From: a virus | Taxonomy: Duplodnaviria; Caudoviricetes | Strand: one strand, 5' to 3' | IMG/VR virus record: IMGVR_UViG_3300030376_007233 | Coordinates: 1 to 29,369 of that record | DNA: 29,369 bases | Part shown: in pieces, positions 3,526 through 28,856 of the stretch | Layout: each line of letters opens with the position of its first letter | Position numbering within the stretch: position 1 is the first letter of the stretch | Notes under the pieces: generated by a model | Told to the model about the DNA's origin: nothing | What the model saw: the letters and a program-made list of their open reading frames with translations, nothing else | Database searches by the model: none | Program-made: the position numbers and the translations under genes

Positions 3526-4218
3526 ATGAAAACAATTGAACATGAAGGACAAGAATATATTCTGAAATCTGAAGTGGATGGAATAGTTAGAGAAAGACTA
3601 TCTAAAGTGGCTGAAGGAAAACGAATGGCAGAAGGAAAAGTTTCTGAATTGGAAGCCATGGTGGAAACTATGGCCGAAAAAGTTAAGGGTGTGGATGCCA
3701 TGGCTTCCCAACTTTCCCAATTACAGGATGAATTGGCTGTTTCCAATCAAAAATATGAACGTCATTCAGCCATTGCCAGCCATGGAATAACAGACCCAGA
3801 AATAAGGGACCTTATCGAGTGGCAATACTCCAAAGAGATGAACGGAAAAAGCACAAAGGATAAGAAATCGTTATCAGATTGGATAAGTGGAATGGGTGAA
3901 AGTGGAGAAATCCCCACTGTTTTACAACCATATTTCAGAATACAGGAAGAAGGACAAGAAGCCCAAGCCCCAGCCCAAGCCCAAGCCCCAGCCCAAGCCC
4001 CAGCCCAAGCCCAAAGCCAAGCCCCATCCAATTATCAATCTTCCAATCCAATGGGACAAAGACCTACAACCAATCAAGGTGTAGCCCCAACACAGGACCA
4101 TGCCACAAGTGAAGCCCTTTGGAAAAAAGCAGGAAATGATTTTGATTTTTACCGCCAAAATCGTGAAGAACTCAAAAAACAGTATTATCAGATGAGAAAC
4201 AACAGATTTAAGCAATGA
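3526..4218 (+). CDS. Capsid scaffolding protein (putative)
   Basis: IVRERL motif, coiled coil, Ala/Gln/Pro linker, short C-terminal helix; follows portal; RBS AGGAG. Confidence 0.65.
   Translation: MKTIEHEGQEYILKSEVDGIVRERLSKVAEGKRMAEGKVSELEAMVETMAEKVKGVDAMASQLSQLQDELAVSNQKYERHSAIASHGITDPEIRDLIEWQYSKEMNGKSTKDKKSLSDWISGMGESGEIPTVLQPYFRIQEEGQEAQAPAQAQAPAQAPAQAQSQAPSNYQSSNPMGQRPTTNQGVAPTQDHATSEALWKKAGNDFDFYRQNREELKKQYYQMRNNRFKQ
3961..4026 (+). repeat. In-frame 6-bp-period tandem repeat (GCCCAA/GCCCCA) encoding an AQAP linker
   Basis: Directly visible; about 11 hexamer units. Confidence 0.9.
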
Positions 4219-5012: not shown

Positions 5013-6695
5013 ATGGATTTTTTTAACCCAGTAGTAAATTTTAAGGGTGCTGTAGAATGTGAAACAGCCCCAACAGCAAATAATCATATGGTACGGAAAC
5101 AAGATGTTTCTAGCCTATCTTTCATCAATGGAATCGCCAGTGGTTCTTCTTCGATGCTATCAGTATCAGGTGGAGAACTTTCCATTAATTCATTGGCAAT
5201 AACAGATGTACATGTTGACAATAGCCAAACCACCTTGGCTAATTTTGTATCCAATGAAAGTTCCACAGCGGCTAGCCTAAAAGAAGGTGATGTTCTTATT
5301 CTTACCGCTCCCAGTGATGGAACAGAAACATACATCATTTCTGGTGCTGATGGTTCTGTGGTTGGAAACTATACCCAGATTGAAAGCCCACTAACAGCGG
5401 CTGAAGTTGGTTCTGTTCTTGTTGCTGGTGATGGTGTATCTGTCAATGCTGCCAATGCAACCATTTCAGCAAATATCGCGGCTGGTTCTGGTCTTTCTTC
5501 TTCTGTAAACAGTGGACAAATTACCTTCGCATTCTCTGGAAACAGTGATATCGTGGCTGAAGGTTCTTCCAATCAATACTTCACCCAAGCGCGCGCGCGT
5601 GGAAGTGTCCAAGCCGATGGCGCGGCTGGAAACCTATTGACCTACACAAGTGGAACAGGTAATTTGGCTGTTTCCACTGCTAGTGTTCGTGGTGTTATTT
5701 CTGGTGGTGCTGGCCTTACATACAATAGTGGTACAGGTGCCATGTCTTTCAGTGGTGACAGTGATGTGGTGGCAGAAGGAAGCACCAATAAATATTATAC
5801 AGATGCCAGAAGTCGAGCTGCTATCAGTGGTGGAACTGGGATTTCATACAACAGTGGAACAGGTGCTTTGGCTATCAGCCTAACAGGTGGGGCGGCCATT
5901 GGTGTTTCTGGAAATACCATATCTTTCAATGGTGATACATCAGATGTGGCAGAAGGGTCCAATCAGTACTTCACCCAAGCGCGCGCGCGTGGTTCTGTCC
6001 AAGCCGACCCAGCGGCAGGAAACCTTTTATCATATACAAGTGGAAGTGGTGATTTGTTGGTTTCCACTGCCAGTGTTCGTGGTGCTTTTGCGGCTGGTGC
6101 TGCCATTGGAATTTCCAGTGGAACAATTTCTTTCAATGGTGATACATCAGATGTGGCAGAAGGGTCCAATCAGTACTTCACCCAAGCCCGTGCACGTGGT
6201 TCTGTCCAAGCCGACCCAGCATCTGGAAACCTTTTATCATACACTAGTGGAAGTGGTGATTTGTTGGTTTCCACTGCTAGTGTTCGCGGTGTTCTCAGTG
6301 CTGGAACTGGCATAGCATATAACAGTGGAACAGGTGCTATTTCTGTTAATGCCACCACATCCAATATTCCAGAAGGTTCCAATCAGTATTATACTGATGC
6401 TCGTGTTCGTGGTGCCATCGGTGCTGGTTCTTCTGCTGATGAATTGATTGTGTACAATGCTGGAAATGGTTCTTTCTCTTTGGAATTGCAAGCATTGCGA
6501 TTTGAAGCACAAAGCACTTTAACCGCAAACACAGCCCAAACCATCACCCATAATCTTGGGAAGAAACTGGTTCATGTATCCGCAATGGATTCGGCTGGAA
6601 ATCTTGTTCAGTTGGATGTCCAATACATTTCCACCAGTGCCTTGAAAGTTACAAGCGCGGTTGGTGTTACTGTTGATTTGGCTGTTTCTTTGTAG
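5013..6695 (+). CDS. Repetitive fibre/spike protein (possibly a head fibre)
   Basis: Gly/Ser/Thr/Ala rich; five copies of a V/I-x-EGSx(N)xY(F/Y)TxARxR repeat typical of phage fibres; RBS GGAG. Confidence 0.8.
   Translation: MDFFNPVVNFKGAVECETAPTANNHMVRKQDVSSLSFINGIASGSSSMLSVSGGELSINSLAITDVHVDNSQTTLANFVSNESSTAASLKEGDVLILTAPSDGTETYIISGADGSVVGNYTQIESPLTAAEVGSVLVAGDGVSVNAANATISANIAAGSGLSSSVNSGQITFAFSGNSDIVAEGSSNQYFTQARARGSVQADGAAGNLLTYTSGTGNLAVSTASVRGVISGGAGLTYNSGTGAMSFSGDSDVVAEGSTNKYYTDARSRAAISGGTGISYNSGTGALAISLTGGAAIGVSGNTISFNGDTSDVAEGSNQYFTQARARGSVQADPAAGNLLSYTSGSGDLLVSTASVRGAFAAGAAIGISSGTISFNGDTSDVAEGSNQYFTQARARGSVQADPASGNLLSYTSGSGDLLVSTASVRGVLSAGTGIAYNSGTGAISVNATTSNIPEGSNQYYTDARVRGAIGAGSSADELIVYNAGNGSFSLELQALRFEAQSTLTANTAQTITHNLGKKLVHVSAMDSAGNLVQLDVQYISTSALKVTSAVGVTVDLAVSL
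5922..6291 (+). repeat. Near-identical internal duplication with a 207-bp (69-aa) period in the fibre gene
   Basis: TCTTTCAATGGTGATACATCAGATGTGGCAGAAGGGTCCAATCAGTACTTCACCCAAGC starts at 5922 and again at 6129. Confidence 0.9.
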
Positions 6696-6713: not shown

Positions 6714-6747
6714 GGGGGTGGGTATCCTCTACCCATCCCCTTTTTTT
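6714..6747 (+). terminator. Rho-independent terminator after the fibre gene
   Basis: Stem GGGGGTGGGTA / TACCCATCCCC, loop TCCTC, followed by T7. Confidence 0.85.
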
Positions 6748-6759
6748 ATGAGGTTATTT

Positions 6760-7137
6760 ATGGTAGAAATAATTATAGCGGCTGTGGTTGGTTTGGTCGT
6801 GGGTGGTTCTTTGACTTTTGGAATAATCCAAGGAACGAAATCCCCAGAAACCATAATCGTACCAAGTGACCCAGTAGCCAAAGAACTTGGCAAACTAGAT
6901 GTGGTTATTCCAATTTGTGAACCAGTATTCATAACCCAAAATGGGGATGGGCTTTGTCGAGAGCTGATGTGTATGACCCAAACCAATTCCGCAACGGGTG
7001 AGATATCTGGGGAGATGTGCAGCAACATAACCAATTTGAGGAATAAAAAAGACTTGATTGGATGGTGTAAAAAAAATCACCCAACCAAGGAGGATTTTGA
7101 AGAGTGTTTGGAAATCTTCCAGAAAAGAGGTATATAA
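6760..7137 (+). CDS. Membrane-anchored Cys-rich hypothetical protein
   Basis: RBS GAGG before ATG 6760; N-terminal TM IIIAAVVGLVVGGSLTFGII; six Cys downstream. Confidence 0.7.
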   Translation: MVEIIIAAVVGLVVGGSLTFGIIQGTKSPETIIVPSDPVAKELGKLDVVIPICEPVFITQNGDGLCRELMCMTQTNSATGEISGEMCSNITNLRNKKDLIGWCKKNHPTKEDFEECLEIFQKRGI

Positions 7138-7141
7138 TAAG

Positions 7142-7230
7142 TTATTCACAGGTTATACACAGCCTATGAATAACTTGTGTATAAAAAGTTCTACACAGGT
7201 TATACACAGTTATGAATAACTTGTGTATAA
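7142..7230. promoter_or_regulatory. Array of eight DnaA-box-like 9-mers in two tandem units
   Basis: Five perfect TTWTNCACA boxes (7142+, 7153+, 7176-, 7200+, 7222-) and three with one mismatch (7165-, 7189+, 7211-). Confidence 0.8.
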
Positions 7231-7231
7231 T
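7203..7231 (+). promoter_or_regulatory. Putative sigma70-type promoter for the major capsid gene, overlapping DnaA boxes
   Basis: TATAAT at 7226-7231; weak -35 TACACA at 17-bp spacing. Confidence 0.45.
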
Positions 7232-7238
7232 GTGAATG

Positions 7239-7276
7239 TGTGGTTAGGTTCGCAACCGTAAACAGCGTAGGCCACG
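7239..7276 (+). ncRNA. Candidate structured 5' leader (stem, inner hairpin, possible pseudoknot) of the capsid mRNA
   Basis: TGTGGTT/GGCCACG outer stem, GGT-TCGCA-ACC hairpin, loop CGC complementary to GCG at 7265-7267. Confidence 0.35.
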
Positions 7277-7305
7277 AAAAACCAATAACCATATAGGAAA
7301 AAAAA

Positions 7306-8241
7306 ATGGCTGAAATTAAATATTCGACGCTAATCAGTACAGGTACTAATCCTGGATTGCGTCTTGACAAAATGATAGAAAATGAAGTGCGTGCCCTTCT
7401 TTTTGACGCGGCTTCTATCCGTAATTCTGGGGCTTTGCTCTTTGCGGGCGATATTGCAGGTGCTGGTAGTGCTGCCCTTTCAATGCGTTACGCGGGTTTG
7501 GATGGGTATGAACCCATGAATACCGTGGCTGATGGTACTGAAATTGCAAACACCAACCTTACTTCTTCAATTGCAGATATCACAGTTGGTCGGATTGGTC
7601 TTCGTTACGACCTTACAGATTTGGCAGCTATGACCAAATTGGGCAATGATATAGATGTATTTCGTCTGGCTGGTTCTATGGCTGGGGCTTTTGAGTCTCG
7701 TTTCATGGAAATGATTTGCGCTTTGTTCTCTTCTGCTACTTCTTCCGCTGGAACCACTGGCGTGGATATGTCAGTGGACGATTTTATGGACGGGCTATAT
7801 CTTTTAGAAATTCAAAATAACCCATCTCAGCTTTTCGCCTGCCTCCACCCACGGCAAATTGCGGATTTGCAATCGTCGATTCGTAATGAAACCGCAAATG
7901 CAATAGCTTTTAACCCAGCCCACCACGACCTTATCAAGAGTCTTGGACAAGGTTTTGTAGGCGATTTTATGGGTGTCCAAATCCATAAATCTGCTTATGT
8001 TCCATCTGATGGAACTGACCGTTCTGGGGCTATGTTTTCAGCCGGTGCTATTGCCTATGCTTTGGGAACTCCTCTTCCATTGGCTGGTCCTGCTGGCGAA
8101 ATTCGCCCCGCTGGAACCCCCGTTTTGGTCGAGCTGGAACGTGATTCGGCCTACTCTTTGACAAAAGTAGTTGGTACAGCGTACACAGGTGCTGCAATTT
8201 GCGAACAAAGCCGAATTGTAGAGCTACTTTCAGACGCATAA
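7306..8241 (+). CDS. Major capsid protein (HK97-fold, putative)
   Basis: 311 aa; capsid-like LHPRQIADL, GFVGDFMGVQI and ELERD segments; codon usage visibly distinct from neighbours; RBS AGGA. Confidence 0.82.
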   Translation: MAEIKYSTLISTGTNPGLRLDKMIENEVRALLFDAASIRNSGALLFAGDIAGAGSAALSMRYAGLDGYEPMNTVADGTEIANTNLTSSIADITVGRIGLRYDLTDLAAMTKLGNDIDVFRLAGSMAGAFESRFMEMICALFSSATSSAGTTGVDMSVDDFMDGLYLLEIQNNPSQLFACLHPRQIADLQSSIRNETANAIAFNPAHHDLIKSLGQGFVGDFMGVQIHKSAYVPSDGTDRSGAMFSAGAIAYALGTPLPLAGPAGEIRPAGTPVLVELERDSAYSLTKVVGTAYTGAAICEQSRIVELLSDA

Positions 8242-12302: not shown

Positions 12303-14506
12303 TGGCTGATATAAATCGTACAATTCAGATAGCATATAGAGCTGAAGTTTCCAATCTGGTGAAGGGCTTGGAAAAAGTAGGCCAAGTTTCTGAGAAAGAA
12401 GCCAAAGAAATTGTGGATAATCTGGACAAGGCATATGAAAAAGCATCCAAAGAAGCCAAGAAATCAGCCAAAAAACAGAAAGATGCTTTGGAAGGAGTAT
12501 CCAAGAAAGCCAAGGGAGTAGGAAAAGACATAAAAGGTTCTTTTTCTGCCATTGCTGTGGGGGCGGCTGCGGCTGGGGCTGCTATTTTGATGTTTGGCCA
12601 AAAAATGGCCGATATGTCCAATCAGCTCGTGGATGCCAGTGCCAAAACAGGTGTGAATGTTGATACATTGAATGGGCTTCGATTGGCGGCTGAAGGAAGT
12701 GGATTGGCTTTTGAAGAACTCGAAATGGGTTTGATACGTCTTCCACAAATGATGAACCAGGCGGCCAATGGTTCCAAGAAAGCCAAAGAAGCATTTCAAA
12801 AACTGGGAGTGGCTACCACCCATACAGTGGATGGATTTGAACAGCTACGAACAGCGGATGAAGTATTAAAAGATGTTTTCCATTCTTTGCAAGCGGTGAC
12901 CAGCCAAGAAGAAAAAGCGGCTTTGGCGGCTGAAATATTTGGGAGAAATGCAGGCCCCAAATTCATCCAAAGTGGAGCCATAGATAATTTGGAAGCCTTT
13001 GTTTCATTGGCGGAAGATTTTGGGGTTTCCACTGGTCCCAACATGACAAACCAAATGGCCAATTTCCAAAGAGTATCTGCCACGGCTTCCAATGTTGTGA
13101 TGGGTGAGATGATGCGATTGGTGGATGTTCTCATGGGTGGAAGTGGAAGTGGTGGGAAGGGCTTGACCAATGCCATTCTGGGAGCCACTGAAGCGATTAT
13201 CTTCTTGGGTTCCATTGCTGGGGATGTATTTGGAACAGTTATATCGGCTGGAAATCTCCAATTGGCCACCATGGATTTTTTAATTCAGAAAATTGTTGGT
13301 TCCTCTTCAGATGCTGAACGTGCTTTTATCGTCATGAATGATGAATTTGAAAACTTTGGAAAAAGTGGTGGTGCTATTGTATCCTCTTTGGATACAGCCC
13401 AAGCCAAATTGGAGGATTTCAGAAAAAAAATGGCTGCCACTATGGCCAGTGGTGGAACTGGAACTGGAACCAGTGGTGGAACTGGAACCAGTGGTGGAAC
13501 AGGAACAGGAACAGGAACTGGAACTGTAACAAATATCCCAAAGGTGACCAAAGAAGTGAACGAATTGGCCCAAGCAGAAAGAATATTGGCCAATGTTCTC
13601 AAGGATATCAATAACAGCATTGAAAAACAAACTGATAGAAGGATAGACTCTCTCCCAACAGAAGAACAAATTCTGGCCAATCGAAATAAAGAAATCATCA
13701 ATTTACGAGAACAACAGAAAATATTGAATGATACGCTTGGACCAGAAATAGAAAGATTGTTTTTGAAAGAAAGGACAGTGGAAGAAGATGAAAAACTTTT
13801 GGAATTGGAAGAAGCATTTTCCAAAAGAAGCGAACAAATAACCACAGAAATCAAAGACGCAAAGATTGACGCTGAAAACGAATTGTTAGATTTACAGATG
13901 GAAAACTTTGATAAATTAGCTGCCAAAGATGCTGAAATTTTAGAAAAAAAATTGGAGGGTATAGAACTCAGAAAACAAGCAGAAGCCCAAGCAGCCCTTT
14001 TTATGGTTGACCAGATGGGGATGGGTTTCGAAGCAGCCGCCCAACTGGTGGAAACATTTGGAAATCAGACCAAAGAAACTGAAAAAATAGCCTTTGGGAT
14101 ACGAAAAGCGGCTTCTATGGCAGATGTGGTTATCGAAACTGCCAAAAATGTGGTGGCTGTGGCTCCACTTGGCCCCTTTGCTATGGGTGCCATGGGTGCT
14201 ATTGGTGCGGCCCAATTGGCTGTGATATCTGCCCAACAACCCAAATTCCACATGGGTGGTATGATTGGCGATGCCAGCCCATTGGCCCCAGATGAAACCA
14301 TGGTAAGAGCCAAACGAGGTGAAGCCATATTATCTACATCAGCAGTTTCCAAGATTGGGGCTGAAGGTGTAAGGGCAATTGAAAAAGGCCAGGGTTTGGA
14401 ACCCACTGTGATAGTGATGAATCCATTCAAACATTATGATAGATTTATAAAGGGAAGAACAGCCATGGGAATGGGTGGTTCATCCACTGGAAGAAAGGGA
14501 TATTGA
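12302..14506 (+). CDS. Tape measure protein
   Basis: 734 aa Ala/Gly-rich helical protein; AFQKLGV, AAEIFGR and C-terminal KFHMGG...AKRGEAIL segments typical of tape measure proteins. Confidence 0.88.
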   Translation: MADINRTIQIAYRAEVSNLVKGLEKVGQVSEKEAKEIVDNLDKAYEKASKEAKKSAKKQKDALEGVSKKAKGVGKDIKGSFSAIAVGAAAAGAAILMFGQKMADMSNQLVDASAKTGVNVDTLNGLRLAAEGSGLAFEELEMGLIRLPQMMNQAANGSKKAKEAFQKLGVATTHTVDGFEQLRTADEVLKDVFHSLQAVTSQEEKAALAAEIFGRNAGPKFIQSGAIDNLEAFVSLAEDFGVSTGPNMTNQMANFQRVSATASNVVMGEMMRLVDVLMGGSGSGGKGLTNAILGATEAIIFLGSIAGDVFGTVISAGNLQLATMDFLIQKIVGSSSDAERAFIVMNDEFENFGKSGGAIVSSLDTAQAKLEDFRKKMAATMASGGTGTGTSGGTGTSGGTGTGTGTGTVTNIPKVTKEVNELAQAERILANVLKDINNSIEKQTDRRIDSLPTEEQILANRNKEIINLREQQKILNDTLGPEIERLFLKERTVEEDEKLLELEEAFSKRSEQITTEIKDAKIDAENELLDLQMENFDKLAAKDAEILEKKLEGIELRKQAEAQAALFMVDQMGMGFEAAAQLVETFGNQTKETEKIAFGIRKAASMADVVIETAKNVVAVAPLGPFAMGAMGAIGAAQLAVISAQQPKFHMGGMIGDASPLAPDETMVRAKRGEAILSTSAVSKIGAEGVRAIEKGQGLEPTVIVMNPFKHYDRFIKGRTAMGMGGSSTGRKGY
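13448..13525 (+). repeat. In-frame Gly-Thr/Ser-Gly-Gly repeat in the tape measure gene
   Basis: GGAACT/GGAACA/AGTGGT hexamer repeats encoding SGGTGTGTSGGTGTSGGTGTGTGTGT. Confidence 0.85.
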
Positions 14507-21389: not shown

Positions 21390-22007
21390 CTATATCTCCA
21401 ATGGTAGTTTTAATTGTCTTTGGTGGTTTTCCAATCTTTCTTTGGCTGCCAGATAATATTCCTTGTCCAGCTCGTACCCATGGAATTCATAGCCCATATT
21501 ATGGGCAGCTATGGCAGAAGAACCACTTCCCAGATGGGTATCCAGTATCTTCCATCCCTTCTTTGCGTACTTATCGAGAAGCCAGGTATATAAGGCCACA
21601 GGTTTCTGTGTAGGATGAATTTTTGATATAGGATTATAATCTGGTCTTGGTTTATCCCAACCAGAAACATTTCCATTATATGTTAAACCGATATATTTAG
21701 CTTTCTTTAGAAAGGAAGTCCACGCTAATTCAAATTCACTCTGTGTTCCTAATCCTCCTTTTAATCCTTTTAATTTATGCCAACAAAGCCAACCTTGTTT
21801 ATGAGGAAGATTAAAATAATTAGCTCCCCAAATAATCTGTTTTTTTGAAACTCTAAATAGTTCTAAAAAATATTCTGATTTCGGGATATTTTTATCCCAG
21901 TCTGCAATGTTTATCCCATATGGTGGGTCAACAATTGCCAAATCGAATTCGTTATCTTGCATGGATGCCATTGCTTCCATACAATCTTTGTTATACAGGT
22001 GTATCAT
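21390..22007 (-). CDS. DNA amino-methyltransferase (N6-adenine/N4-cytosine, beta class)
   Basis: IVDPPYG catalytic motif, HPTQKP, LDTHLGSGSS SAM-binding motif, GYELDKEYY. Confidence 0.93.
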   Translation of the reverse strand: MIHLYNKDCMEAMASMQDNEFDLAIVDPPYGINIADWDKNIPKSEYFLELFRVSKKQIIWGANYFNLPHKQGWLCWHKLKGLKGGLGTQSEFELAWTSFLKKAKYIGLTYNGNVSGWDKPRPDYNPISKIHPTQKPVALYTWLLDKYAKKGWKILDTHLGSGSSAIAAHNMGYEFHGYELDKEYYLAAKERLENHQRQLKLPLEI

Positions 22008-22021
22008 GGTTCTTTCCTTGT

Positions 22022-22336
22022 TTATTGTTGTTTCATGTGTTCGTTGGCTTCTTCTATAAGGTTTTCGATTATCACACGCCTGGTGGATAAATCACGAATT
22101 CCAGCACAAAATTTGAGAATAGCCCCATGGGTTGGGCGTTTCTTTTGTCGTTGTCTTCTCCATCTTGTAAGGGTTTGGGAGTTAAAGCCCCAATCTTCCA
22201 TCATTACAGTATTGACTTTGTGATATCTTTGGGTTTCCAGTACCCAAGCCCCAAATCGTATTGGGCAAAAATCAGTTTCTGATGGAATGGCTTTCCATGT
22301 TGTGGGTAGTAGATTGGAATTGAATTTCCTTCTCAT
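22022..22336 (-). CDS. Hypothetical protein, possible degenerate HTH
   Basis: WGFNSQTLTRWRR...RPT resembles an XRE recognition helix; operonic overlap. Confidence 0.55.
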   Translation of the reverse strand: MRRKFNSNLLPTTWKAIPSETDFCPIRFGAWVLETQRYHKVNTVMMEDWGFNSQTLTRWRRQRQKKRPTHGAILKFCAGIRDLSTRRVIIENLIEEANEHMKQQ

Positions 22337-22608
22337 GTTTTTTTCCTTGTTTTATGGTTGTAATCTTTGATAATCGGCTTCAATGCTTCATACCAAACCA
22401 CTTCTGTGGATTTGTTGGTGTGTATGGCTATGAATTCACACAGCCGATATAGTTTCATGGTTTGGGGATGGCTATAACCCTTGGCATAGTTATCCACCCC
22501 TTGGGTAGTGATATCCAGATGATTGGCCAAATCTTTCCATTTGAATTTTGTGGTTCTTTTCTGCCTACACAGCCACATGGAAAAATGTGGACTTCTCACT
22601 TTTTCCAT
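22333..22608 (-). CDS. XRE/Cro-like HTH protein
   Basis: WKDLANHLDITTQGVDNYAKGYSHP. Confidence 0.75.
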   Translation of the reverse strand: MEKVRSPHFSMWLCRQKRTTKFKWKDLANHLDITTQGVDNYAKGYSHPQTMKLYRLCEFIAIHTNKSTEVVWYEALKPIIKDYNHKTRKKT

Positions 22609-23439: not shown

Positions 23440-23937
23440 ATGAAAATTGCACAGCAATACCCAAAAAATATTAGACATGTTCTTACAAAAATAAAGGAAC
23501 AAGACTTGATATTTAATTATGAAACAGATGTATCTACTCTATTGGATACTCTTTTTGAAATGGTCAATAATCAACAAAGAATAATAGAACAGATGCTAAA
23601 ACAACAATATCAAGCAATAGAGGTTCCAATTAACCCTGCTGGGGTTTATGCGGTTCCATTTGATTTTGAACAGTGGTTCACCTGTTCTTCAGAAATCATA
23701 ACAGATATGAAAGAAGGTGAAATAGTAATTGTTCGTAAATCATCACAAGAACATTATGAAGAAGATTTTGCTTTGAAGTGGATGACAGTAAATCACATGC
23801 AATATGAACATGACGACAAAGAAATATATGTAGCCACAACAGATAGCCCAACATGTACAAATTGGTTCCAAAAATATGATGGAACCATTGGAAACAAAAT
23901 TAAAATTATCAATAACTTTATCAAACAAGGAGAATAA
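23440..23937 (+). CDS. Hypothetical protein, first gene of the rightward early operon
   Basis: AAGGA RBS; 165-aa ORF. Confidence 0.7.
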   Translation: MKIAQQYPKNIRHVLTKIKEQDLIFNYETDVSTLLDTLFEMVNNQQRIIEQMLKQQYQAIEVPINPAGVYAVPFDFEQWFTCSSEIITDMKEGEIVIVRKSSQEHYEEDFALKWMTVNHMQYEHDDKEIYVATTDSPTCTNWFQKYDGTIGNKIKIINNFIKQGE

Positions 23938-23938
23938 A

Positions 23939-24229
23939 ATGGAAATCAAAGAACTAATGACATACAGACCTATCAGAAAACTAGTGCAAAAATATGGAAT
24001 GGTGGGAGCTGAAGAAAGAATTAAAAGTCCTACTTTCCCAATCTGGCTATGTCTCAAAATGAACGAATTTGGGCTATCACAAAGAGATTTGGCCAATAAG
24101 ATGAATATGGATGAGAGTCTTTTATCTCGTTTGGTGAATGGTGAAAGACCCCCAAATGTCAACCACATAAAAGCATTGTCAGATGCTTTGGAAGTGGAAC
24201 CATCTGAAATCTGGGATGTGATATTATGA
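23939..24229 (+). CDS. XRE-family HTH transcriptional regulator
   Basis: GLSQRDLANKMNMDESLLSRLVNGERPP...ALSDALEV; RBS AGGAG. Confidence 0.9.
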   Translation: MEIKELMTYRPIRKLVQKYGMVGAEERIKSPTFPIWLCLKMNEFGLSQRDLANKMNMDESLLSRLVNGERPPNVNHIKALSDALEVEPSEIWDVIL

Positions 24230-28688: not shown

Positions 28689-28856
28689 GGGACAAGGCTT
28701 GTCCCACTCTGTCCCTTTACAGGTCAACAATAAACCACTGTTCTATGTAGCTGGAATGGTGGTTTTGTTACTAATGGGACAATGGGACAAGAAAAACCTT
28801 AAAAAAAGGATAGATATAATTACAGTATATATGTTGGGGCTTTTCGTTGTCCCATT
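28689..28856. repeat. Array of GGGACA(A) direct and inverted repeats with a central hairpin; candidate replication origin
   Basis: Copies at 28689+, 28698-28705-, 28709-28715-, 28776+, 28784+, 28847-28853-; hairpin 28732-28765. Confidence 0.6.

Follow-up and report, generated by a model that had tools for sequence, protein, structure and literature searches.

The window analyzed here is the whole 29,369-nucleotide stretch of a phage record described as marine, with a GC content of 40% and ends that overlap by 11 bp only. This 29.4-kb record carries terminase, capsid, tail and endolysin genes, two methyltransferase genes, HTH genes, a primase gene and a VapE-type helicase gene, the last two in agreement with the initial annotation of this DNA, which had credited the phage with its own primase and helicase. 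Between a tail-fibre-like gene and the gene for the major capsid protein, a further gene is followed by an ordered array of DnaA boxes (F, forward; R, reverse), a predicted promoter and a predicted structured leader:

6714 to 6746, + strand: intrinsic-terminator-like hairpin and T run at the end of the upstream tail-fibre-like gene
6760 to 7137, + strand: upstream gene, 125 aa, with an N-terminal hydrophobic stretch and several Cys; its stop lies 4 bp before the first box
7142 to 7184, no strand given: array unit 1, with boxes F7142, F7153, R7165 (one mismatch) and R7176
7189 to 7230, no strand given: array unit 2, with boxes F7189 (one mismatch), F7200, R7211 (one mismatch) and R7222
7203 to 7208, + strand: predicted -35, TACACA, identical with the last six bases of the box at 7200-7208; 17-bp spacer to the -10
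7226 to 7231, + strand: predicted -10, TATAAT, overlapped by the last box (7222R)
7240 to 7275, + strand: covarying pseudoknot in the predicted capsid mRNA leader; outer stem 7240-44/7271-75, inner stem 7247-49/7255-57, loop 7251-53 with 7265-67
7306 to 8241, + strand: major capsid protein gene, 311 aa, assigned from weak matches and gene order

An RBS-like GAGG, together with the terminator, led us to place the start of the upstream gene at 6760, as against 6661 in the ORF calls. The matches behind the capsid assignment, both weak, are to PHROG 544 (E 5e-4) and to the HTVC026P capsid protein (E 1e-3), and comparison of the capsid ORF with PDB sequences gave 0 matches. Coding repeats are also present in the window, as 207-nt repeats in the fibre-like gene (5013-6695), AQAP repeats in a scaffold-like gene (3947-4035) and GT(S)G repeats in the tape measure gene (13446-13529).

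A motif scan of the window confirmed eight DnaA-box 9-mers within 89 bp of the 91-bp element at 7141-7231, and recovered the coordinates, the two FFRR units 46-47 bp apart and the 2-bp gaps within pairs that the initial annotation had described. Five boxes match TTWTNCACA exactly, as was also stated there (7142F, 7153F, 7176R, 7200F and 7222R), and three carry one mismatch (7165R, 7189F and 7211R). From unit 1 to unit 2, forward boxes are offset by 47 bp and reverse boxes by 46 bp; gaps are 2 bp between neighboring forward boxes and between neighboring reverse boxes, 3 bp (unit 1) or 2 bp (unit 2) at the forward-reverse junction, and 4 bp between units. The array begins 4 bp past the stop codon of the upstream gene and ends on the TATAAT. 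Exact boxes are in mild excess over the whole 29.4-kb record (10 versus a shuffle mean of 5.25, with at least 10 in 4 of 100 shuffles). For the array itself, 5 exact boxes per 91 bp compare with a maximum of 2 in 500 dinucleotide shuffles (0/500 above 2), and the clustering of boxes at 7141-7231 is not due to chance. The array contains the at least four closely spaced TTWTNCACA-type boxes that define a stable DnaA-box cluster in the available text of PMC2533591. An assembly artefact is unlikely, since the array is identical (0/91 differences) in two close strains whose flanking capsid gene differs (103/936 and 133/936). Hairpins predicted over the array as RNA were rejected as a product of the FFRR palindromes lying upstream of the predicted transcript start, and a search of Rfam gave no match near the gathering score for either the array or the capsid leader.

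The last box overlaps the TATAAT at 7226-7231, as initially annotated. Overlooked at that stage was that the box at 7200-7208 supplies the predicted -35, so that boxes overlap core promoter elements at the predicted capsid promoter, the arrangement that marks a DnaA-regulated promoter. The capsid promoter is a prediction from consensus and conservation: the TATAAT -10 is found in 40/40 tabulated clade loci, array-bearing or array-less, and the -35 position reads TTTACA in three kin that have no array (L131, L133 and L034). Downstream, the two helices of the leader pseudoknot are 97% paired and their covariation score was reached by 0/500 shuffles, in statistics that cover 47 of 81 distinct sequences and a structure derived from those same sequences. 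The pseudoknot is family-wide and independent of the array, and is kept, with compensatory changes, down to ~48% capsid identity. Its onset 9 nt past the -10 fits a transcript start there, predicted at about 7237-7240. Pseudoknot-like motifs also occur in relatives at 40-44% (L100-L102 and L324), and two copies are present in L066, L180 and L324.

The initial annotation had looked to box conservation upstream of related capsid genes, and such conservation is present. Three capsid-protein scans and one DNA-pattern scan gave 183 capsid-match loci with 114 distinct sequences upstream of the gene. At least four exact boxes lie within 400 nt upstream of the capsid gene at 36 loci, some of them near-copies, with 7-16 boxes each. 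All 36 belong to one 42-row clade of a quick tree of 69 rows, from which rows with <200 nt upstream were dropped and in which only 10 rows below 58% identity were kept. Six of the 42 clade members have no array or a remnant only, yet retain the -10 and the leader; array presence requires 3-4 changes on this tree, and array-less L034 has nearly the same capsid protein as array-bearing L125 and L126. In 36/36 capsid-promoter arrays the -35 position lies under a box, and the last forward box is at -25 to -27 from the -10 in 34/36. The other two, L025 and L145, are shifted in register by ~18 bp relative to the -10, and a reverse box, not a forward one, lies over the -35. Box number rises from 7 to 16 via tandem gain, with growth on the upstream side that reaches 170-180 bp upstream of the -10. 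At L124/L015, 250-330 nt upstream of the capsid gene, an ~850-bp insertion seen in G002 parts the array, cut to 7 boxes, from its usual upstream gene. A boxless sister clade (the L045-L054 group) has instead a conserved AT-rich palindromic block of ATATCAT/ATGATAT repeats at the capsid promoter, between divergent genes, which is possibly the site of another regulator.

To characterize the boxes, we compared 350 of them from the 36 arrays, selected at one mismatch or fewer. Positions 1, 2, 4 and 7 are invariant, position 3 is A or T, position 5 is T, A or C, and the permitted single mismatch is usually found at position 8; the counts lack independence, given the relatedness of the arrays and the duplications inside them. 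C at position 5 is found in 29/32 forward TTTT boxes versus 15/195 TTAT boxes, a rule that fails in reverse boxes (C in 4/14). E. coli DnaA is described as binding TTTT boxes well only with C at position 5 (available text of PMC5835720). G precedes the box in 279/350, as in R1, R2 and R4 of oriC. As judged from these patterns, the array boxes are under selection. Upstream of a bacterial dnaA gene (L351) we found F-GCC-R-CT-R, whose spacer letters are those most common in the phage units, and the exact box pair with a 2-bp gap is present in 28/401 genomes of one bacterial phylum, compared with 1 for a reversed-motif control. With 74 of 125 ORFs scanned, 8/25 of these bacterial loci were found to adjoin dnaA, dnaN, ribonucleotide reductase or parB. 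DnaA domain IV (PF08299) was detected in 0/5 and 0/14 phage records, tblastn with one DnaA C-terminus gave a best E of 0.65, and 15 ORFs searched against Pfam at E 10 gave no DnaA match. Gene-family clustering likewise found no family present in all 12 array-bearing records and absent from all 11 array-less ones. The variation rules, which are those of DnaA boxes, the spacer match at bacterial dnaA and the lack of a detected DnaA domain in the phage together make host DnaA the likely binder of the array. An N6/N4 methyltransferase family (window 21390-22007, - strand) is present in 10/12 array-bearing versus 2/11 array-less records, with a nominal p of 0.003 for an association picked post hoc among ~50 families in related genomes, some of them fragments.

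Arrays are not confined to the capsid promoter. Among 25 family genome records, 7 have an array at the capsid promoter, 7 have one elsewhere and 11 have none, and no record has both; several of the records are fragments, four were read over the first 20 kb only, and the 11 array-less ones comprise some fragments and several complete genomes. A reversed-motif control across the 25 records gave one cluster. The arrays elsewhere are as follows:

G010:C1:24065-24193, G020:C1:5139-5291 and G013:C1:24041-24160: downstream of the scaffold cluster
G015:C1:24384-24915, G019:C1:5783-5946, G021:C1:5923-6032 and G024:C1:13724-13875: in or near the replication module

A degraded box pair is found in G018. 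In G010 and G020 the array is inserted between the stop codon and the terminator of convergent genes; at this site 2/9 distinct sequences have the array, 7/9 have stop and terminator only, and a promoter scan found no promoter-like site overlapping the arrays. The array is therefore an accessory, position-flexible element gained at at least three sites in the family, as indicated by the 7/7/11 distribution and the promoterless insertions. Arrays at other sites are built of 12-bp pairs, and the strongest box type makes up 47/50 of their boxes versus 15/257 at capsid promoters. The weaker boxes at capsid promoters fit a releasable version, and a different host specificity would explain them too.

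We propose that the array is a DNA sink for host DnaA and that, at the capsid site, it also holds capsid transcription until release, a reading to which we give about an even chance. Titration of DnaA, already raised in the initial annotation, is the simplest common explanation, since a position-independent purpose suits arrays at differing sites. The relatives' arrays at promoterless sites lend it weight. Relocation likewise favors a sink as the role common to the family, to which capsid repression would be added locally. The capsid copy-number sensor put forward at the same time is plausible for this promoter, given the -35 box in 36/36 arrays and the weaker boxes; it cannot be the family-wide purpose, and 6/42 clade members have lost or degraded the array. 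In the proposed mechanism, DnaA would bind cooperatively to the 11-bp-spaced box pairs. One incoming genome would bring 8 sites only, which DnaA would saturate, in competition with sigma70 where box and -35 coincide, by analogy with dnaA and mioC of E. coli. The primase and helicase of the phage could then raise the number by replication to ~25 copies, or 200 sites (8 boxes x 25 copies), equal to the E. coli DnaA pool per origin; the figures are those of E. coli, and the DnaA level and specificity of the host may differ. As free DnaA fell, new host initiation would be delayed, occupancy of medium-affinity boxes would drop and capsid mRNA would rise. For E. coli, the available text of PMC5835720 counts 307 consensus boxes and puts DnaA at ~200 per origin; it describes box-bearing plasmids as titrating DnaA, derepressing DnaA-repressed promoters such as dnaA, and raising initiation mass. 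Against ~300 chromosomal boxes (the E. coli figure), eight medium boxes would be nil as a sink at entry and effective only late in infection.

A narrower explanation is promoter control only, whereby host DnaA represses the capsid promoter (or, at low occupancy, may activate it) according to the DnaA-ATP state, with negligible effect on host replication. Coverage of the -35 in every capsid-promoter array, growth on the upstream side and medium-affinity boxes all fit, as does the record of DnaA as a regulator, which represses dnaA and mioC, affects nrdAB in a dual manner and also influences transcription in lambda; moreover, a box pair over the -35 is the layout in about 22/41 viral stretches outside the capsid-array family. 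We nevertheless regard promoter control alone as unlikely, in that it gives no account of arrays between convergent genes before a terminator or of expansion to 16 boxes, 170-180 bp upstream of the -10. A site of DnaA-assisted origin firing or helicase loading, as an early or second origin, is improbable. It would fit the presence of at most one array region per genome and the free position of that region, and the arrays of G015, G019, G021 and G024 in or near the primase/helicase module keep it alive; in the wider viral sample, tandem pairs adjoin primase/helicase genes in at least 7 of 79 loci with scanned neighbors. However, the DnaA-dependent second origin suggested in the initial annotation fares poorly at the array itself. 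With boxes masked, a DnaA-trio run after a box was found in 0/36 capsid-promoter and 0/6 other arrays versus 2/2 dnaA-dnaN loci, using a search pattern fitted to those two loci. There is no GATC, and the interval 7001-7320 contains no exact match to the IHF consensus, one-mismatch matches coinciding with boxes. The flanks, at 47-75% AT, fall outside the most AT-rich windows, GC skew has no inflection at the array, 11/25 records, several of them complete, do without an array, and a primase and a helicase are encoded by the phage itself.

Two further explanations concern what the DNA binds and what a bound protein does there. That the array is the operator of a phage HTH protein that happens to resemble a DnaA box has, in our estimate, very little probability. 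The window does encode HTH proteins (81-617, 22022-22336, 22333-22608 and 23876-24229), the forward-reverse pairs are near-palindromic, and an XRE-like family is present in 12/12 array-bearing records. The same family is, however, present in 9/11 array-less records, and its matches share 26-53% identity while the motif is still at the bacterial consensus. In addition, the motif pair recurs in an estimated ~1,700 viral stretches and at bacterial dnaA/dnaN loci, many arrays consist mostly of direct repeats, and no DnaA-like domain was found in the phage. A suspected absence of HTH genes from array-less genomes was dismissed by gene-family clustering. Nor do we see much prospect for DnaA acting as a physical block or tether, either as a transcription roadblock at operon ends or as a membrane or nucleoid anchor of the kind proposed for T5. 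Such a role is possible because almost every array is in forward orientation and borders a stop codon, starting within a few bases of it at all inspected sites except L124 and G019. The available text of a B. subtilis study raises the possibility that DnaA acts as a roadblock (PMC2533591), and that of a T5 preprint proposes tethering by membrane-bound DnaA (10.1101/866236). Against it, the intrinsic terminator at the convergent site is present with or without the array, abutment on stop codons is expected in compact genomes, and the T5 model is itself a proposal, made for an injected genome end, whereas the window array is mid-genome. The sink with a capsid gate, which we prefer, faces objections of its own. 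Arrays elsewhere could each serve a local job, with those of G015, G019 and G021 lying in the replication module, and the array is dispensable, as 6/42 clade rows and 11/25 records are without a full one.

Comparison with known DnaA systems places the array closest to promoter-linked clusters. Like E. coli mioC and dnaA p2 and the B. subtilis dnaA, ywlC, yydA and sda clusters, it has at least four close boxes upstream of and overlapping a sigma70-type promoter, and a multicopy mioC region is described as titrating ~8 DnaA each (available texts of PMC5835720, PMC2533591 and PMC8203912). In contrast to these clusters, it is phage-borne, stands before a structural gene, is built of 45-47-bp FFRR units with 7-16 boxes, and has been moved between sites by the family. 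Like E. coli datA, the array is a non-coding cluster of boxes that becomes more abundant as DNA copies accumulate and would lower active DnaA (parts of PMC5742627 and PMC4585315). According to the accessible part of PMC5742627, ATP hydrolysis at datA depends on co-directional boxes that flank an IHF site, whereas the array is FFRR with no exact IHF site; given this mixed orientation and the lack of an exact IHF site, simple titration is the most that can be claimed. The DARS1/DARS2 cores share the order of one forward box then two reverse boxes (same source), but their gaps are 5 and 3 bp in both E. coli DARS versus 2-3 and 2 bp in the phage, where no IHF/Fis module was found. Features that define datA (DDAH), a DARS core, an oriC-type unwinding element, a phage PF08299 protein with its site or the T5 injection-stop boxes are absent from the array. 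By analogy, it is best classed as a phage-borne, relocatable DnaA-box array resembling a DnaA-titrating, DnaA-repressed promoter, with a putative function.

Among phages, T5-like genomes have eight conserved, paired, half-consensus DnaA boxes away from their own origin, in the first-step-transfer region (10.1101/866236, in the text available). The T5 pairs are instead 3 bp apart, split between inverted repeats of the terminal repeat and proposed as an injection stop (same text), as opposed to the mid-genome array with 2-bp gaps found here; the word 'promoter' does not occur in the available preprint text (10.1101/866236). At lambda pO/ori, host DnaA also binds phage DNA and affects phage transcription, but lambda has a few weak sites, which serve replication by stimulating transcription, with no dense array on a late promoter described in the sections available (PMC3985674 and PMC8203912). 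The initial annotation knew of no described example of this arrangement. That holds for the capsid promoter in the literature searched, which mostly excluded subscription journals and yielded neither a phage DnaA-box array on a capsid promoter nor a phage DNA sink for DnaA. It does not hold for ordered eight-box arrays, reported in T5-like phages (10.1101/866236, in part), or for DnaA control of a phage promoter, known from lambda (PMC3985674 and PMC8203912, in part). Routes by which phages block host initiation or couple late genes to replication use proteins in the literature we met, such as YfdR binding DnaA, and Mu C and T4 factors using the sliding clamp (available texts of PMC4776307 and PMC12867686), and DNA-only titration of DnaA would, if true, be a new logic of host takeover. 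More tentatively, and with a chance that we put somewhat below even, small aquatic phages may repeatedly have evolved a movable, protein-free host-takeover device, in which tandem DnaA boxes are placed behind stop codons at at least three sites and each new genome acts as a sponge. Here, on the capsid -35, one titration would both shut off host initiation and switch on capsid synthesis, tying late transcription to replication without a phage protein. A sink of this kind would also be a natural test of the long-debated initiator-titration model, for which the family offers matched genomes that have or lack the array at a given site, as well as strong and weak box versions.

The answer could apply widely, as tandem box pairs are estimated for ~1,700 IMG/VR stretches. 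This estimate derives from 121 viral loci with the exact tandem pair and flanks in 5 of 64 IMG/VR parts, and 64/121 have at least four exact boxes nearby. Neighboring ORFs are mostly unannotated, with primase/helicase and terminase/HNH recurring among the 144 ORFs. A box pair lies 16-18 bp before TAYAAT in 41 stretches, 18 of which have the capsid gene of the window's phage family. With respect to the host, distant high-GC relatives of the capsid protein are found in 11/401 genomes of the phylum of a 'delta proteobacterium' MAG, of which only one comes from the 13 genomes of the seed genome's order. Of the capsid-relative genomes tested, 5/5 carry MYXO-CTERM domains and 3/5 also a terminase relative. 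We tentatively place the host of the family loosely in the Myxococcota, from a survey of this single phylum and with a phage GC of 40% versus high-GC relatives. No tandem box pairs were found in the 13 genomes of the seed genome's order, and the search for a cultured relative returned none, with one match at 25%.

Several other loci came to light in these scans. The cultured phage MZ955867.1 (Pseudomonas Litunavirus; L439:803-824) carries this tandem box pair close to its genome end and is a possible tractable model. Five bacterial genomes (L343 and L345-L348) have a DnaA-box cluster that is distant from dnaA and flanked by a helicase gene and a UPF0102 gene. In six viral loci (L364, L366, L369, L190, L196 and L262) a DnaA-box pair is followed by GTGGAG repeats resembling published MraZ binding repeats, possibly a mimic of the host mra promoter; L364, L366 and L369, which also have a TATAAT, were rejected as mraZ promoters themselves, since no long ORF stands close behind. 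In the window, four TGTCCCA/TGGGACA motifs, the separate origin candidate of the initial annotation, are indeed present in a gene-free gap after the helicase module (28700-28855), and similar clusters in G001 and G014 accompany this candidate phage origin.
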